Virus record (IMG/VR): IMGVR_UViG_2663763232_000012
Source of the DNA: a virus
Lineage: Duplodnaviria; Heunggongvirae; Uroviricota; Caudoviricetes
Strand: one strand, 5' to 3'
Length of the DNA stretch: 5,560 nt
In this document: in pieces, positions 286 to 5,560 of the stretch
Layout: each line of letters opens with the position of its first letter
How positions within the stretch are numbered: position 1 is the stretch's first letter
Notes under the pieces: generated by a model
Told to the model about the DNA's origin: nothing
What the model saw: the letters and a program-made list of their open reading frames with translations, nothing else
The model's database searches: none
Position numbers and translations under genes: made by a program

Positions 286-1272
286 ACGGTAAACAGGGCC
301 AGGAACGCCGTGCAAAAGAATGGCGATACCTTGTCCGGTGGGCTTACTTTTGAAAACGACTCAATCCTTGCCTGGATTAGAAATACTGACTGGGCAAAGA
401 TTGGTTTTAAAAATAATGCCGACAGCGACACTGATTCATACATGTGGTTTGAAACAGGCGACAACGGCAATGAATATTTCAAATGGAGAAGCCGCCAGAG
501 CACCACAACAAAAGACCTGATGACTCTTAAATGGGATGCTTTGTCTGTCCTTGTTAAAGCCCTTTTCAGCAGTGAAGTAAAAATATCGACAGTCAATGCA
601 CTGAGGATATTTAATTCATCTTTTGGTGCTATTTTTCGTCGTTCTGAAGAATGCCTGCATATCATCCCTACACGAGAGAATGAGGGAGAAAATGGTGATA
701 TAGGGCCACTACGCCCCTTTACGCTTAATCTCAGAACTGGTCGGATAAGCATGGGGCATGGTCTTGATGTTACAGGGGATATATTTGCAAACCGTTTTGC
801 AATTAACAGTAGTACCGGCATGTGGATTCATATGCGTGACCAGAATGTTATTTTGGGACGCAATGCGGTATCCACCGATGGTGCGCAGGCATTACTTCGT
901 CAGGACCACGCTGATCGCAAATTTATGATTGGTGGACTGGGGAATAAGCAATTTGGCATCTACATGATTAATAACTCAAGGACAGCCAATGGCACCGATG
1001 GTCAGGCGTACATGGACAACAATGGCAACTGGCTTTGCGGTGCGCAAGTTATTCCCGGCAATTATGGTAATTTTGACTCACGTTATGTGAGAGATGTCCG
1101 ACTTGGTACACGTGTTGTTCAGACTATGCAAAAAGGCGTGATGTATGAGAAATCAGGTCATGCAATTACGGGGCTTGGCATTATCGGTGCAGTTGATGGC
1201 GATGATCCGGCAGTATTCAGACCAATACAAAAATACATCAATGGCACATGGTATAACGTCGTACAGGTGTAA
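268..1272 (+). CDS. Tail fibre protein, C-terminal variable (receptor-binding) cassette; 5'-partial and promoterless silent copy of an invertible segment
   Basis: Open frame from the TAA at 265-267 to the TAA at 1270-1272; the GTG at 310 is probably not a real start. Ends match side-tail-fibre C-terminal regions (DWAKIGFKNNADSDTDSYMWFETGDNGNEYFKWRSRQSTTTKDLMTLKWDAL ... NFDSRYVRDVRLGTRVVQ ... DGDDPAVFRPIQKYINGTWYNVVQV) with a divergent middle. The frame enters through the inner half of the gix site and is followed by a tfa gene. Confidence 0.8.
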   Translation, partial: NLGLQETVNRARNAVQKNGDTLSGGLTFENDSILAWIRNTDWAKIGFKNNADSDTDSYMWFETGDNGNEYFKWRSRQSTTTKDLMTLKWDALSVLVKALFSSEVKISTVNALRIFNSSFGAIFRRSEECLHIIPTRENEGENGDIGPLRPFTLNLRTGRISMGHGLDVTGDIFANRFAINSSTGMWIHMRDQNVILGRNAVSTDGAQALLRQDHADRKFMIGGLGNKQFGIYMINNSRTANGTDGQAYMDNNGNWLCGAQVIPGNYGNFDSRYVRDVRLGTRVVQTMQKGVMYEKSGHAITGLGIIGAVDGDDPAVFRPIQKYINGTWYNVVQV

Positions 1273-1275
1273 TTT

Positions 1276-1803
1276 ATGCAGCATTTAAAAAATATTAAGT
1301 CTGGAAATCCAAAAACAAAAGAACAATATCAGCTAACAAAGAATTTTGATGTTATCTGGTTATGGTCCGAAGACGGAAAAAACTGGTATGAGGAAGTGAA
1401 AAACTTTCAGCCAGACACAATAAAGATTGTTTACGATGCAAATAATATTATTGTCGCCATCACCAAAGATGCCTCCACGCTTAACCCTGAAGGTTATAGC
1501 GTCGTTGAGGTTCCAGATATTACAGCCAACCGCTGCGCTGATGATTCCAGTAAGTGGATGTTTAGGGACGGAGCTGTGGTTAAACGGATTTATACGGCAG
1601 ACGAGCAACAACAACAGGCCGAATCACAAAAGGCCGCATTGCTTTCCGAAGCTGAATCAGTCATCCAACCGCTGGAACGCGCTGTCAGGCTGAATATGGC
1701 AACAGACGAGGAACGCACACGACTGGAAGCATGGGAACGCTACAGTGTTCTGGTCAGCCGTGTGGATACGGCAAATCCTGAATGGCCACAAAAACCAGAG
1801 TAA
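1276..1803 (+). CDS. tfa: Tail fibre assembly protein (Mu U / Tfa family)
   Basis: 175 aa; AGGTG SD 7 nt upstream of the ATG. N-terminus [48 protein letters not shown] and C-terminus [33 protein letters not shown] are typical of U/Tfa chaperones (recalled); lies directly after the tail-fibre cassette. Confidence 0.85.
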
Positions 1804-1825
1804 AAATTAAGGCCCGATACCGGGC
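1802..1825 (-). terminator. Weak candidate intrinsic terminator for the minus-strand transcript
   Basis: Hairpin GCCCG-ATAC-CGGGC (1812-1825) is followed on the minus strand by CTTAATTTTT (rc of 1802-1811). The stem is only 5 bp and overlaps the last codons of the ParB-like ORF. Confidence 0.2.
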
Positions 1826-2238
1826 AAAACATCCGTCAACAGTTCATCAATTTCTGTCGGGCCGAAGCCTGTCAGGGAGACATCAAAATCAGCATTGATT
1901 AGGTCCGACAGCTCCATCCGCAACAGATCTTCATCCCAGCCAGCATTCATCGGTAGGCGATTATCTGCCAGGCGGTACGCCTTTTTCTGCTCATCCGTCA
2001 GGCCAGACAGAACAATGACCGGAACAGAATCCATTTTGAGCATTTCAGCCGCCATAACACGACCGTGACCCGCAATAATTTCGCCCTTTTCGTCAATCAG
2101 CACCGGATTAGTCCAGCCGAATTGCTTAATACTTTCTACCAGTTGTGCCACCTGCTCAGTACTGTGCGTCCTGGCGTTGTGCGCATACGGTGACAATTCT
2201 TGTAATGGGCGATAGACTATCTTTAATTTCTCGCTCAT
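1807..2238 (-). CDS. ParB-like nuclease-domain protein (ParB/Srx fold), standalone 143 aa; possibly the N-terminal remnant of a ParB-methyltransferase fusion
   Basis: MSEKLKIVYRPLQELSPYAHNARTHSTEQVAQLVESIKQFGWTNPVLIDEKGEIIAGHGRVMAAEMLKMDSVPVIVLSGLTDEQKKAYRLADNRLPMNAGWDEDLL shows the ParB N-terminal-domain pattern (YxPLxxL..Y..NxRxH, GHGR motif, following AxxxADN segment). The GFGPTEIDELL tail resembles the linker before the catalytic domain in ParB-MTase fusions. The ORF ends 3 bp from the convergent tfa stop. Confidence 0.75.
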   Translation of the reverse strand: MSEKLKIVYRPLQELSPYAHNARTHSTEQVAQLVESIKQFGWTNPVLIDEKGEIIAGHGRVMAAEMLKMDSVPVIVLSGLTDEQKKAYRLADNRLPMNAGWDEDLLRMELSDLINADFDVSLTGFGPTEIDELLTDVLPGIGP

Positions 2239-2250
2239 ACAGCCTTGCTT

Positions 2251-2289
2251 TATGAATAAAACGCACCCCAGCAGCCAGTGCTACTGGGG
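2251..2289 (-). terminator. Candidate rho-independent terminator between trkG and the ParB-like ORF
   Basis: Inverted repeat CCCCAGCAG / CTACTGGGG (2266-2274 / 2281-2289, one mismatch, 6-nt loop) followed on the minus strand by TGCGTTTTATTC, placed 88 bp after the trkG stop and before the ParB-like start. Confidence 0.3.
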
Positions 2290-2375
2290 GCGGAGGTGTT
2301 GCTGGTAAAGTTAGGTATTGGATCAATGAGTGAGTCAATATAATATTAAACTCACAATTATAAATCAGCCATATA

Positions 2376-3833
2376 TTAGGAGCGCCAAAAAAAACCTGAA
2401 AACAATATAATAACAGGATAAATTTCAAGGCGACCAAGAATCATAGCTATGCACATTAAATATTTTGCAATGTCATTAAGCACTCCGAATGACGATGCAG
2501 TAGCCCCAAAACCTAATCCCATATTATTAATACATGCAGCCACTGTTGCAAATGATGTAAGAAAATCATATCCCATACCATTTAACACCAGTATAAAAAA
2601 CACCGTGAAGAGAGTATAAAGAAAAAAGAAACTCCATACAGACCTCATTACACGATCTGTAACTATCTTCCCTCCTACATTTACACTCAACAACGCTCTG
2701 GGATGAGAAAGCTGATTTATCTCGTGTTTGCTTTGTTTGAAAAGTATAAGAAATCGAAGTGACTTAATTCCACCACAAGTTGAACCTATACATCCCCCAA
2801 AGAAACTTGACGACAGCAAAAACACTATCGTGTGCGTGGGCCAGTTTGCATAATCCTGCGTAGCTAAACCATTATCAGTGAGCATGGAGCTGGCAAGAAA
2901 AAACGAATGAATAAAACTTCCATGCAAGTCATACATACCTATATGCCAGACCTGGAAAGAGGTAACAATGATCACCCCTAAGGCTATTAACAGAAAGAAA
3001 CGAAGTTCAATATCTCTGATTAAAGGTTTTATCGTTTTCCTGCTAATAACAATATACCAAAGAGTGAAGTTGAAAGCCGATAGCAGGGAAAAAGAACCAG
3101 CCACCAGCTCAACCAAATAGTTATTAAAATATCCGATACTCTCGCTATGAGTTGAGAAACCACCAAGCGAAACTGTGGAAATCCCGTGACAAATAGCATC
3201 AAACAAAGGCATTCCTGCAAGTCTATAACAGACAATACAAGCAATACCTAATAAAGAATAAGTTATCCACAGTGTCCGTGACGTATCGGCCAGGCGGGGA
3301 GTGAGTTTGTCATCCTTAAATGGCCCCGGCATTTCTGACTGATAAAGCTTTGTACCACCAATACCCAATAATGGCAATACAGCAACCGCCAGAACAATAA
3401 CTCCTAAACCACCTATAAAATTTAACTGTGACCGATAGTACAAATATGCCCGAGGTAATGAACTAACATCATCAATTACAGTTGCTCCTGTTGTTGTTAT
3501 TCCAGAAACCCCTTCAAACAGAGCATCAATGAACGTTAAATTAAGTTCTGAGTCAATCCATAAAGGGAATGCACTAATAACAGAAAACAAAATCCAAAAC
3601 ATTACAATTATAATAAACCCATCACGGGTACGTAATTGAATGCCAGATTTCTTAGTTGTATACCACGCTCCGCCACCAATGCAAAAAAATATAACGAAAG
3701 TTATAAAGAAAACGAACAGGCTTTTTTCTTTATAAAACAATGCTACAACCATTGGTGGCAACATTGAAAGACTATAGAGCCAAACCAGGAACCCACACAT
3801 ATGAGTAACAACTCTTACATGAGATGTATTCAT
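2376..3833 (-). CDS. trkG: TrkH/TrkG-family potassium uptake membrane protein (prophage-borne trkG-like)
   Basis: Polytopic hydrophobic protein with TrkH-family motifs (GITTTGATVIDD selectivity-filter-like segment, GGFSTH, NNMGLGFG, GRLEI). ATG at 3833 gives 485 aa (MNTSHVRVV...), the length I recall for E. coli Rac TrkG; an in-frame TTG at 3851 with AGGTGG 6 nt upstream gives 491 aa. Visibly AT-rich relative to its neighbours. Confidence 0.85.
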   Translation of the reverse strand: MNTSHVRVVTHMCGFLVWLYSLSMLPPMVVALFYKEKSLFVFFITFVIFFCIGGGAWYTTKKSGIQLRTRDGFIIIVMFWILFSVISAFPLWIDSELNLTFIDALFEGVSGITTTGATVIDDVSSLPRAYLYYRSQLNFIGGLGVIVLAVAVLPLLGIGGTKLYQSEMPGPFKDDKLTPRLADTSRTLWITYSLLGIACIVCYRLAGMPLFDAICHGISTVSLGGFSTHSESIGYFNNYLVELVAGSFSLLSAFNFTLWYIVISRKTIKPLIRDIELRFFLLIALGVIIVTSFQVWHIGMYDLHGSFIHSFFLASSMLTDNGLATQDYANWPTHTIVFLLSSSFFGGCIGSTCGGIKSLRFLILFKQSKHEINQLSHPRALLSVNVGGKIVTDRVMRSVWSFFFLYTLFTVFFILVLNGMGYDFLTSFATVAACINNMGLGFGATASSFGVLNDIAKYLMCIAMILGRLEIYPVIILFSGFFWRS

Positions 3834-3878
3834 ATCTAAATATTCTTTCAATTATAACCACCTTGCTGCAATATTATG

Positions 3879-3884
3879 ATTATA
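3879..3884 (-). promoter_or_regulatory. Candidate -10 hexamer for trkG transcription
   Basis: Perfect TATAAT on the minus strand (fwd ATTATA 3879-3884) about 28 nt upstream of the TTG/SD; no convincing -35 at 17-bp spacing (TAAGAG at best). Confidence 0.2.
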
Positions 3885-3970
3885 CTGTATAAAATTTAAC
3901 TCCTCTTAGATCTTACTTCACTGTTCCTTATGAAACAATCATCAAAATGAATCATATTGTAGTTAAGATT

Positions 3971-4435
3971 TTACTTTAAACACTGCTCGGTTATGTATTG
4001 CTGAGCACCTTCAAGTTGGGCCTGCATCATTACCAGTCGTTCCCGGAGGGTGAAATAATCCCGTTCAGCGGTGTCTGCCAGTCGGGGGGAGGCTGCATTA
4101 TCCACGCCGGAGGCGGTGGTGGCTTCACGCACTGACTGACAGACTGCTTTGATGTGCAACCGACGACGACCAGCGGCAACATCATCACGCAGAGCATCAT
4201 TTTCAGCTTTCGCATCAGCTAACTCCTTCGTGTATTTTGCATCGAGCGCAGCAACATCACGCTGACGCATCTGCATGTCAGTAATTGCCGCGTTCGCCAG
4301 CTTCAGTTCTCTGGCATTTTTGTCGCGCTGGGCTTTGTAGGTAATGGCGTTATCACGGTAATGATTAACAGCCCATGACAGGCAGACGATGATGCAGATA
4401 ACCAGAGCGGAGATAATCGCGGTTACCCTGCTCAT
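3971..4435 (-). CDS. Rz: Rz i-spanin (inner-membrane spanin), lambda-like
   Basis: [134 protein letters not shown]... is near-identical to lambda Rz (recalled). The ATG at 4435 overlaps the endolysin stop as ATGA; the track ORF extends 4 codons further to a GTG. Confidence 0.9.
4030..4215 (-). CDS. Rz1: Rz1 o-spanin (outer-membrane lipoprotein), embedded in the +1 frame of Rz
   Basis: [57 protein letters not shown]... carries a lipobox (VVGC) and the proline-rich segment, near-identical to lambda Rz1 (recalled), and lies wholly inside Rz. Confidence 0.85.
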
Positions 4436-4656
4436 TGTTGCCCCCACAAACAGACCTCACGCTCAATCTCACGACGAGTCATCAGGCCTTTCCATTGCTT
4501 ACCGCCAGCGTATGCCCAGCGACGTAGCTGGTCACATGCGCCCTTGATATCGCCCTGGTTTATTTTGCGAAGAAGAGTAGATGTTCTGAAATTGCCTGCG
4601 CCCACGTTATAGACGAACGAGTAAAGAGCGCCGCGCGTTGTTTCCGGTAGGTGCGA
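4432..4656 (-). pseudogene. R: SAR-type endolysin (GH24 lysozyme, phage 21 R-like), 5'-truncated; only about the C-terminal 73 codons remain
   Basis: The minus-strand frame ending at the TGA (4434-4432) translates to ...[72 protein letters not shown], matching the C-terminus of R21-type lysozymes (recalled). An in-frame stop lies at 4659-4657, and no frame upstream encodes the N-terminal SAR or catalytic region. Confidence 0.75.
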
Positions 4657-4774
4657 TCACTTTCGTCTACTCCGTTACAAAGCGAGGCTGGGTATTTCCC
4701 GGCCTTTCTGTTATCAGAAATCCCCTGAAAGCACAGCGGCTGGCTGAGGAGATAAATAATAAACGGGGGGCTGT

Positions 4775-4966
4775 ATGCACAAAGCATCTCCTGTTGAGTT
4801 AAGAACGTGTATCGAGATGGCACATAGCCTCGCTCAAATTGGAGTCAGGTTTGTGCCAATACCAGTAGAAACAGACGAAGAATTTCATACGTTAGCCGCA
4901 TCCCTTTCACAAAAGCTGGAAATGATGGTGGCGAAAGCAGAAGCAGATGAGAGAGACCAGGTATGA
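4775..4966 (+). CDS. Hypothetical small protein (63 aa), resembling lambda exo-xis-region small ORFs
   Basis: ATG with a G-rich SD (GGGGGG) 4 nt upstream. Hydrophilic, protein-like composition (MHKASPVELRTCIEMAHSLAQIGVRFVPIPVETDEEFHTLAASLSQKLEMMVAKAEADERDQV). Its stop overlaps the next start as ATGA. Confidence 0.5.
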   Translation: MHKASPVELRTCIEMAHSLAQIGVRFVPIPVETDEEFHTLAASLSQKLEMMVAKAEADERDQV

Positions 4967-5046
4967 CAACCACTGAATGCATTTTTCTGGCAGCGGGCTT
5001 CATATTCTGTGTGCTTATGCTTGCCGACATGGGGCTTGTTCAATGA
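4963..5046 (+). CDS. Candidate 27-aa hydrophobic peptide (MTTTECIFLAAGFIFCVLMLADMGLVQ), translationally coupled on both sides
   Basis: Not in the supplied ORF track (too short). The ATG at 4963 overlaps the upstream stop (ATGA) and its TGA at 5044-5046 overlaps the next ATG (ATGA). One predicted transmembrane helix; purine-rich GAGAGA 8-13 nt upstream. Confidence 0.35.
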   Translation: MTTTECIFLAAGFIFCVLMLADMGLVQ

Positions 5047-5258
5047 CACCTCAGCAAGAAAACGCCCTTCGCAGCATTGCCCGTCAGGCTAATTCTGAAA
5101 TCAAAAAAGCCAGACAGCAGTTTCCGGATAAAAACGTCGATGACATTTGCCGTAGCGTACTGAAGAAGCACCGCGAAACGGTAACGCTGATGGGATTCAC
5201 ACCGACTCATTTAAGCCTGGCAATCGGCATGTTAAACGGCGTCTTTAAGGAACGATGA
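5043..5258 (+). CDS. Hypothetical small protein (71 aa from the ATG at 5043; the track ORF starts at 4977)
   Basis: MTPQQENALRSIARQANSEIKKARQQFPDKNVDDICRSVLKKHRETVTLMGFTPTHLSLAIGMLNGVFKER is hydrophilic and protein-like. The 5043 start has GGGG about 10 nt upstream and ATGA coupling; the 4977 start has no SD, and its first 22 codons overlap the hydrophobic peptide ORF. Confidence 0.5.
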   Translation: MTPQQENALRSIARQANSEIKKARQQFPDKNVDDICRSVLKKHRETVTLMGFTPTHLSLAIGMLNGVFKER

Positions 5259-5278
5259 ACATGAAAAGCAAAATTATC

Positions 5279-5303
5279 AGGGAGCTACAGGCTCCTTTTT
5301 TAT
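5279..5303 (+). terminator. Candidate rho-independent terminator after the small-gene triad
   Basis: Hairpin GGAGC-TACAG-GCTCC (5281-5295), extendable by A-U and G-U pairs, followed directly by TTTTTTATT, 23 bp downstream of the 5258 stop. Confidence 0.4.
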
Positions 5304-5356
5304 TGCTCGCATTTACCCCCAAGCGTATTAACCAACAATTCAGGGATTAATGGAAG

Positions 5357-5542
5357 ATGGCAGACATCATTGATTCAGCATCAGAAATTGAAGAATTACA
5401 GCGCAACACAGCAATAAAAATGCGCCGCCTGAACCACCAGGCTGTATCTGCCACTCATTGTTGTGAGTGTGGCGATCCCATAGATGAGCTAAGACGCCTG
5501 GCTGAACCGCCCCGGGTTTCCTGGAGAGTGTTTTATCTGTGA
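5357..5542 (+). CDS. TraR/DksA-family C4 zinc-finger protein (lambda Orf73-like), apparently frameshifted before the second CxxC
   Basis: ...ATHCCECGDPIDELRR matches the TraR pattern CxxCGNPIPEARR (recalled). In frame the ORF ends RLAEPPRVSWRVFYL* with no second CxxC; the alternative frame after the run CCGCCCCGGG (5509-5518) reads GFPGECFICELRLPD... (FPG plus CxxC) and runs to the window edge. Confidence 0.55.
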   Translation: MADIIDSASEIEELQRNTAIKMRRLNHQAVSATHCCECGDPIDELRRLAEPPRVSWRVFYL

Positions 5543-5560
5543 ACTCAGGCTGCCAGATCA

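Follow-up and report, generated by a model that had tools for sequence, protein, structure and literature searches.

We analysed a 5,560-nucleotide (nt) stretch of bacteriophage DNA (Caudoviricetes; IMG/VR record IMGVR_UViG_2663763232_000012; hereafter referred to as the window), the right part of which contains a 0.9-kb fragment of the exo–xis block of lambdoid phages, and focused on a 27-codon open reading frame (ORF) within this fragment, hereafter referred to as pep27. pep27 (4963..5046, plus strand) encodes MTTTECIFLAAGFIFCVLMLADMGLVQ and lies between two plus-strand genes. The upstream gene is orf63 (ORF-A; 4775..4966, 63 residues, TGA stop at 4964–4966), a DUF1382 member (Pfam E = 7.9e-32; PHROG 292) that is 98% identical to lambda c31005..31196. 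The downstream gene is ORF-C (5043..5258, 71 residues, ATG at 5043, stop at 5256–5258), an orf61-type gene that matches PHROG 303 over profile positions 23–93 and begins at the start chosen by the Prokaryotic Genome Annotation Pipeline (PGAP). The pep27 ATG overlaps the orf63 stop as ATGA (4963–4966), and the pep27 TGA overlaps the ORF-C ATG in the same manner (5043–5046), confirming the three small ORFs and two ATGA overlaps described in the initial annotation. The segment 4775–5258 is 98% identical to lambda J02459 30712–31196, and the identical pep27 peptide is encoded in lambda NC_001416 at complement(30925..31008), nested out of frame in the annotated orf61 (30839..31024). In intact prophages the gene order is exo, DUF1317, DUF1382, [pep27], 71-residue ORF, TraR, ea22 ... 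xis, int, and the phage host-takeover setting proposed earlier agrees with the identity of the locus as an early host-interaction operon, the lambda exo–xis block. If pep27 and the downstream orf31 are both accepted as genes, genes follow one another through the block without an untranslated gap; omitting pep27 leaves a gap of 76 nt, and no other gene overlaps positions 4967–5040.

The initial annotation had called the 27-codon ORF unannotated. This holds for the RefSeq/PGAP and phage records examined, but not for the public protein sets, in which the exact peptide is present as a 'hypothetical protein' (UniRef A0A0A2SGE8_ECOLX) called on 981 contigs. Databases thus already contain the ORF, as an uncharacterised entry, but the gene map in use for the region lacks it. 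Two 428-residue members of its protein cluster are unrelated glycosyltransferases, and two descriptions considered as prior annotations of pep27, the 'putative membrane protein' of 434B and the 'transmembrane domain' note of ST2-8624, both denote ORF-C. A literature search for the pep27 sequence did not find it, and no relevant passage was found in the text of a 2026 preprint on small proteins of uropathogenic Escherichia coli. Published maps place seven ORFs between exo and xis (PMC3824215, PMC9239242), and a review adds peptides of 7 and 31 residues from lambda ribosome profiling (PMC8614690); these two peptides fit the ORF at 5350–5373 and orf31, respectively.

Deep homologues of the module are absent: a search with the ORF-C protein returned only E. 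coli relatives, and tblastn against phage records found no distant relatives of pep27. We therefore used population variation, gathering 353 loci from IMG/VR, metagenomes, phage records and E. coli genomes, and calculated the ratio of non-synonymous to synonymous polymorphism per site (pN/pS) from the 287 ungapped sequences (32 haplotypes) spanning pep27. The pep27 frame contains 14 synonymous variants over 18.3 sites and 15 non-synonymous variants over 62.7 sites, corresponding to a pN/pS of 0.31 (binomial p = 0.002 for the synonymous excess), and codon position 3 holds 15 of the 29 variants. Over the same DNA, the other two sense frames give values of 0.79 and 0.82, neither significant, and the three antisense frames give 0.49, 0.48 and 1.00 (p of 0.05 or higher); the comparison of synonymous with non-synonymous change suggested in the initial annotation thereby sets the 27-codon frame apart from the other five. 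Among the neighbouring genes, ORF-C has a pN/pS of 0.30 (p = 7e-6), orf63 of 0.49 (p = 0.025) and orf31 of 0.38 (p = 0.019). Synonymous pep27 alleles reach a frequency of 118/287, whereas every non-synonymous allele is found in 8 or fewer of the 287 sequences (Mann–Whitney p = 1.5e-4), and the replacements are mostly conservative (F to L, A to V, G to V and V to I). The selection picture was unchanged in a smaller first sample. Thus, the amino-acid sequence of pep27 is under purifying selection, and its frame behaves as a protein-coding gene.

Both junctions and the frame between them are preserved. In the first sample of 200 loci, the start junction ATGACA is unchanged in all 185 sequences, and the codon overlapped by the pep27 stop is ATG in 164 of them and GTG in 20, so that ATGA or GTGA is present in all but one; across the 287 sequences, the ORF-C start is ATG, or GTG in 44. 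Small insertions or deletions (indels) are found in 36 of about 350 loci, several in orf63, many in ORF-C and a single one in pep27, the latter a frameshift on a contig of 1.3x coverage that carries a second indel elsewhere. The most divergent pep27 allele (89.7% DNA identity) is still intact and encodes MTTTECIFLAAGFIFCVLMLSGMGLVQ. Interruption of the 27-codon frame between conserved flanks, which the initial annotation regarded as evidence against the peptide, is limited to the low-coverage frameshift and very few disrupted copies. Among the latter is a locus of E. coli O111:H8 7-15 45A (L236, 714–863), in which a deletion junction in pep27 codon 12 leads to fusion with an unrelated partial gene.

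The pep27 stretch (window 4950–5060) matches 3145 of 5426 complete E. coli genomes, with roughly 4300 E. coli copies in all. Of 176 phage records matched by tblastn, 175 encode the peptide with an identity of at least 92.6%, among them lambda, 434, 933W, VT2-Sakai and Phi24B. A scan of genome contigs found the module in Escherichia only, apart from lambda-DNA contamination in unrelated species. The block in assemblies of Shewanella, Pseudomonas, Bradyrhizobium, Kitasatospora, Paenibacillus and others (L216–L229) lies on contigs some of which are ~48.4 kb long and many of which have low coverage, all with the lambda-type frameshift described below, and looks like contaminating lambda DNA rather than biology. 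Two apparently divergent hits (L086 and L087) were discarded as indel-ridden assemblies, and P0023 proved to be a deletion-junction artefact.

On the left, homology to the window ends in one of three recurrent ways. In the full-block type (249 loci), it extends over the whole block. In the dam type (26 loci), it starts exactly at the A of the pep27 ATG; at the junctions of the 16 dam-type loci that were read, the upstream gene ends in ...GGGAGGCTGCATGA, as in the PhiR30_1 dam methylase, and the ATGA overlap is kept. In the SfI type (19 loci), homology begins at 5061, and an unrelated gene of 250 residues stops 8 nt before an ORF-C that starts MTIEHNNALRS. Since homology resumes at the pep27 ATG where dam replaces orf63, pep27 travels with ORF-C and heads the shared module.

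The start of ORF-C determines whether pep27 is overlapped by a second coding sequence. An in-frame ATG at 4977 would yield a 93-residue form, the annotated N-terminal extension of which (4977..5042, plus strand) runs across pep27 out of frame; this start is used in older GenBank records (Stx1 phage Stx1_p100 and vb_24B_7c of Phi24B), whereas PGAP uses the 71-residue start. The initial annotation doubted the start at 4977, and the present data bear this out. The 22 additional residues evolve neutrally (pN/pS of 0.82 in their own frame) and are absent in the SfI-type ORF-C, and the AlphaFold2 predicted local distance difference test (pLDDT) values of the 93-residue form are 44–53 for residues 1–20 and 74–92 for the rest. 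We do not consider the extension to be coding. The model predicts a small helical protein with helices at residues 25–48, 54–71 and 76–86 (93-residue numbering). Published modelling took only residues 24–93 and called lambda Orf61 'truncated' (PMC8614690), in agreement with the 71-residue start. In reference lambda (L083/L239), the run of A at 5103–5108 is A7, whereas it is A6 in the window and most relatives, and this additional A shifts the ORF-C frame, so that the annotated orf61 (61 residues) is truncated; its N-terminus is unconserved. Lambda orf61 also begins at an upstream ATG inside orf63 (equivalent to 4947), in a frame that a TGA closes both in the window and in 182 of the 287 relatives. 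About 25 loci carry the A7 allele, and many of these are lambda itself. Thus, the true ORF-C start is the 71-residue ATG, and both the 93-residue form and the 61-residue lambda orf61 are mis-annotations. The PGAP name 'cell division protein ZapA' given to ORF-C in many genomes did not hold up (Pfam ZapA 16.1 bits against a cut-off of 23.8; no ZapA among the Foldseek results), and a Foldseek search of the PDB with the AlphaFold2 model returned nothing with E < 2, for a ZapA or homeodomain fold or for any other. One variant (P0011) has lost the stop of ORF-C, which there continues in frame into orf31 (…VFKERGNMKSKIIRE…).

The initial annotation described the product as a single-helix hydrophobic peptide, and the Kyte–Doolittle hydropathy of pep27 fits one membrane helix. 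The hydrophobic segment CIFLAAGFIFCVLMLADMGLV spans 21 residues with a mean of 2.33–2.42, and the best 19-residue mean, 2.33, ranks third among the 90 ORFs of the window, after Rz and TrkG only. E5 and D22 are the only charged residues. In its size and its one helix of spanning length, pep27 resembles small single-pass inner-membrane proteins (up to about 50 residues). It belongs to no family in Pfam, NCBIfam or PADLOC, and PHROGs gave only a chance-level match (E = 0.68); searches of Pfam, NCBIfam, PHROG and PADLOC likewise found no similarity to Kil, toxin or defence families, to which the initial annotation had likened the module. As for type I toxin features, weak negative tests found no antisense-RNA or sigma-70-like promoter on either strand (4400–5560) and no Rfam match at E ≤ 1. 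A structured mRNA leader was not seen either (z = +1.67), and the first codon of the ORF overlaps the stop codon of the gene before it. The same two results, no Rfam family at that threshold and a segment that folds less well than its shuffles, speak against an RNA element at this position.

Pairing with the anti-Shine–Dalgarno (anti-SD) sequence at the pep27 start amounts to −5.6 kcal/mol in the window and to −10.3 kcal/mol, a strong SD, in the mosaic with dam upstream. The SD of ORF-C at the 71-residue start is weak (−4.7 kcal/mol), and the start at 4977 has the weakest pairing (−3.8 kcal/mol). Translational coupling at both junctions, as proposed in the initial annotation, is plausible from the invariant stop/start overlaps, which are kept even with a different upstream gene. 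By contrast, the fixed stoichiometry that was proposed with it does not follow from the overlaps alone.

We propose the full order of the block to be exo, orf60a, orf63, pep27, orf61/ORF-C, orf31, orf73 and ea22. In the window, orf60a (4638..4802, plus strand; Pfam DUF1317 E = 2.7e-32 over profile positions 10–60 of 60) is truncated at its 5′ end and shares 28 nt with the start of orf63. On the left it ends at a deletion junction with an opposite-strand lysozyme (rrrD) remnant, and PGAP annotates the same junction in pECO-cbb3. This back-to-back arrangement of the minus-strand rrrD remnant and truncated orf60a, at ~4605–4640, is rare: just 31 E. coli records have it, among which are several plasmids, including large ones such as pECO-cbb3. 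To the left, the exo–xis fragment adjoins the lysozyme remnant, Rz/Rz1, trkG and tail-fibre genes; positions 310–4447 of the window constitute a Rac-like prophage remnant with the C-terminal part of a tail fibre, a tail-fibre assembly gene, a ParB-N-domain gene, trkG, and Rz with a nested Rz1. To the right of ORF-C lies orf31 (5255..5350, plus strand, 31 residues), which is annotated in mEp332, 434B and SfI, and the start of which overlaps the ORF-C stop as ATGA in the window and as GTGA in many relatives. A terminator-like hairpin followed by a T-run lies within orf31 (5279..5297, plus strand), and a terminator between orf61 and orf73 was also predicted previously (PMC4195576). A 7-codon ORF (MEDGRHH, 5350..5373) follows, its ATG overlapping the orf31 TAA. 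The next gene, orf73 (5357..5502, plus strand), encodes a TraR/DksA-type zinc finger (NCBIfam TIGR02419 E = 8.6e-9; Pfam zf-dskA_traR) and is cut after codon 48, with its match to uninterrupted copies stopping at 5502, by the end of an IS3-family (IS1203/IS629-like) insertion sequence (5503..5560), which matches 2655 plasmid records annotated as IS3-like element IS1203 family transposase. A similar insertion sequence lies inside ORF-C in the genome L088.

The best explanation of these observations, to which we assign a probability of roughly two in three, is that pep27 is a real small protein, made by termination–reinitiation after orf63 (or dam), which feeds ribosomes into ORF-C and acts in the inner membrane on a membrane protein during early phage development. 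That the exo–xis region is transcribed early from pL is established in lambda, and in an intact phage the block would be transcribed from this promoter. Ribosomes ending orf63 at its TGA may re-initiate at the overlapping ATG to produce the 27-residue peptide, and those ending pep27 may in turn re-initiate at the overlapping ORF-C ATG or GTG. The product, one hydrophobic helix about 21 residues long, with two acidic residues but no basic ones, most likely enters the inner membrane, where it would bind a host or phage membrane protein by helix–helix contact, as part of an early programme tuning lysis versus lysogeny.

Several observations weigh against this explanation. The lack of Lys and Arg in pep27 is unusual for membrane anchors and leaves no positive-inside bias, and the SD in the common context (GAGAGAGA) is modest. 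The review of lambda ribosome profiling gives the 7- and 31-residue peptides as additional products of the block and no 27-residue one (PMC8614690), although any footprints on pep27 would have been assigned to the annotated orf61 that overlaps it. The SfI-type mosaic has an ORF-C but no pep27, so pep27 is not obligatory for ORF-C. The family is young and of narrow range, being confined to Escherichia/Shigella phages with identities of at least 90%, which limits the selection test to 29 variants; these include a few radical singletons (I14K, C16R and C16Y), and the antisense frame that shares wobble positions with pep27 also has a lowish pN/pS (0.48), although that frame is closed by stops in all sequences. 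Finally, a sigma-70-like scan of both strands (4400–5560) found no promoter-like site upstream of the block in the window; bounded on the left by the truncated orf60a and on the right by the insertion sequence in orf73, the block is a remnant that lacks a promoter, and this copy may therefore be silent.

Alternatively, the 27 codons could be translated merely to bring ribosomes from the orf63 stop to the ORF-C start, with a functionless peptide as the by-product, which we consider unlikely. Such a relay would account for stop/start overlaps that are present at both ends and invariant at the start junction; it also fits the weak SD of ORF-C, and the SfI-type ORF-C, which follows the upstream stop after 8 nt, is equipped with a TGAGG SD of its own and needs no pep27. 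However, an open frame would suffice for a relay, yet pep27 is constrained as strongly as ORF-C, and the rarity of non-synonymous alleles indicates that the peptide is not free to vary. Nor is its hydrophobicity explained by composition, as only 0.36% of the shuffled spacers with an open frame are as hydrophobic as pep27. Still less likely is a chance ORF in an untranslated 76-nt spacer, with accidental frame and overlaps. About 30% of spacer shuffles do stay open; the peptide has no Pfam, NCBIfam, PHROG or PADLOC family and is absent from the peptides given in the ribosome-profiling review (PMC8614690), and conservation by descent is expected among such closely related sequences. Against a chance ORF stand the concentration of variants at codon position 3, the frame-specific synonymous excess and the skew in allele frequencies, as well as indels that are present in orf63 and ORF-C but essentially absent in pep27, and a mosaic breakpoint exactly at the pep27 ATG.

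Two further alternatives place the coding sequence in another frame. We consider it very unlikely that ORF-C starts at 4977 (93 residues, vb_24B_7c of Phi24B) or at the lambda orf61 ATG (4947), with pep27 as an out-of-frame shadow. Deposited annotations do use these starts, the PHROG 303 alignment covers all 93 residues as a consequence of how its members were called, and AlphaFold2 places a short, low-confidence helix at residues 8–17; against this stand the neutral evolution and low pLDDT of the extension, the weak SD at 4977, the TGA that closes the 4947 frame in most relatives, and the +1 A frameshift that accounts for the 61-residue lambda version. In addition, the SfI-type ORF-C begins at the 71-residue ATG immediately after another gene, the start that PGAP also uses. 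The remaining alternative, that an antisense ORF (4845..5030, minus strand, 61 residues) is the constrained one and shares its wobble positions with pep27, is highly improbable. Its frame (−1) does reach p = 0.05, but its pN/pS is higher than that of the sense frame and is expected as a by-product of the shared wobble positions, and the ORF runs counter to the pL transcript, with no promoter-like site on either strand and no family match.

The main reason for interest in pep27 is that it is present in lambda itself and alters the reading of published orf61 experiments. The exo–xis block of lambda and Shiga toxin (Stx) phages affects lysogenisation, prophage induction and host survival, and has been dissected gene by gene on a map that lacks pep27 and in which orf61 is mis-drawn. 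Published Δorf61 alleles replace the annotated orf61 or vb_24B_7c (PMC6213356). From the coordinates, pep27 lies within lambda orf61 and mostly within vb_24B_7c, so these alleles would remove all or most of it; if pep27 is real, the Δorf61 mutants of lambda and Phi24B are double mutants, and ribosome-profiling signals taken as 'expression of orf61' may in part belong to pep27. As the +1 A breaks the lambda ORF-C frame and leaves the annotated orf61 largely a pseudogene shadow, and as the Δorf61 alleles also remove pep27, it is conceivable, if doubtful, that pep27 rather than 'Orf61' is the active product behind part of the published orf61 deletion or frameshift phenotypes. Were this the case, a membrane-acting early factor would shift the lysis–lysogeny balance or host physiology through a host inner-membrane protein, adding a new functional gene to the best-studied phage. 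Over half of the complete E. coli genomes match the pep27 stretch, and a further early product that acts at the membrane could be relevant to the induction of Stx phages. More generally, the case illustrates that a small gene can stay hidden beneath a neighbour annotated as too long, even in a genome that serves as a model.

A comparison with known systems places pep27 among several groups of small proteins. Lambda Kil, Rac KilR and Qin DicB are encoded in the same kind of operon and are early, non-essential and host-directed; unlike the product predicted here, they are not membrane helices, and no sequence relation to pep27 was found. The type I toxins (Hok, Ldr, TisB, Ibs and DinQ) are, like pep27, short hydrophobic peptides, some of them prophage-borne, whereas no promoter, antisense RNA or structured leader of its own was found for pep27, which, if translated, is an internal cistron of a polycistronic early operon. 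With the lambda exo–xis small ORFs (orf60a, orf63, orf61, orf73 and the 7- and 31-residue peptides), pep27 shares the operon, the overlapping chain, the distribution across lambda and Stx phages and the strength of selection, but it appears on no published list (the seven ORFs of PMC3824215 and PMC9239242, and the two peptides of PMC8614690) and is the sole strongly hydrophobic product, the others being soluble helical or zinc-finger proteins. The closest likeness in form is to the E. coli proteins KdpF, AcrZ, MgtS and PmrR, small single-helix inner-membrane proteins that bind larger membrane complexes. pep27 differs from them in being phage-encoded, in having no sequence similarity to them and in that its membrane location is predicted, but it resembles them in its size (<50 residues), its one helix of bilayer-spanning length and its position in an operon with overlapping codons, and in its lack of basic residues it is like KdpF, which is not known to contain any. 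Overall, pep27 is most likely a genuine, overlooked gene that joins the small phage-encoded membrane peptides.

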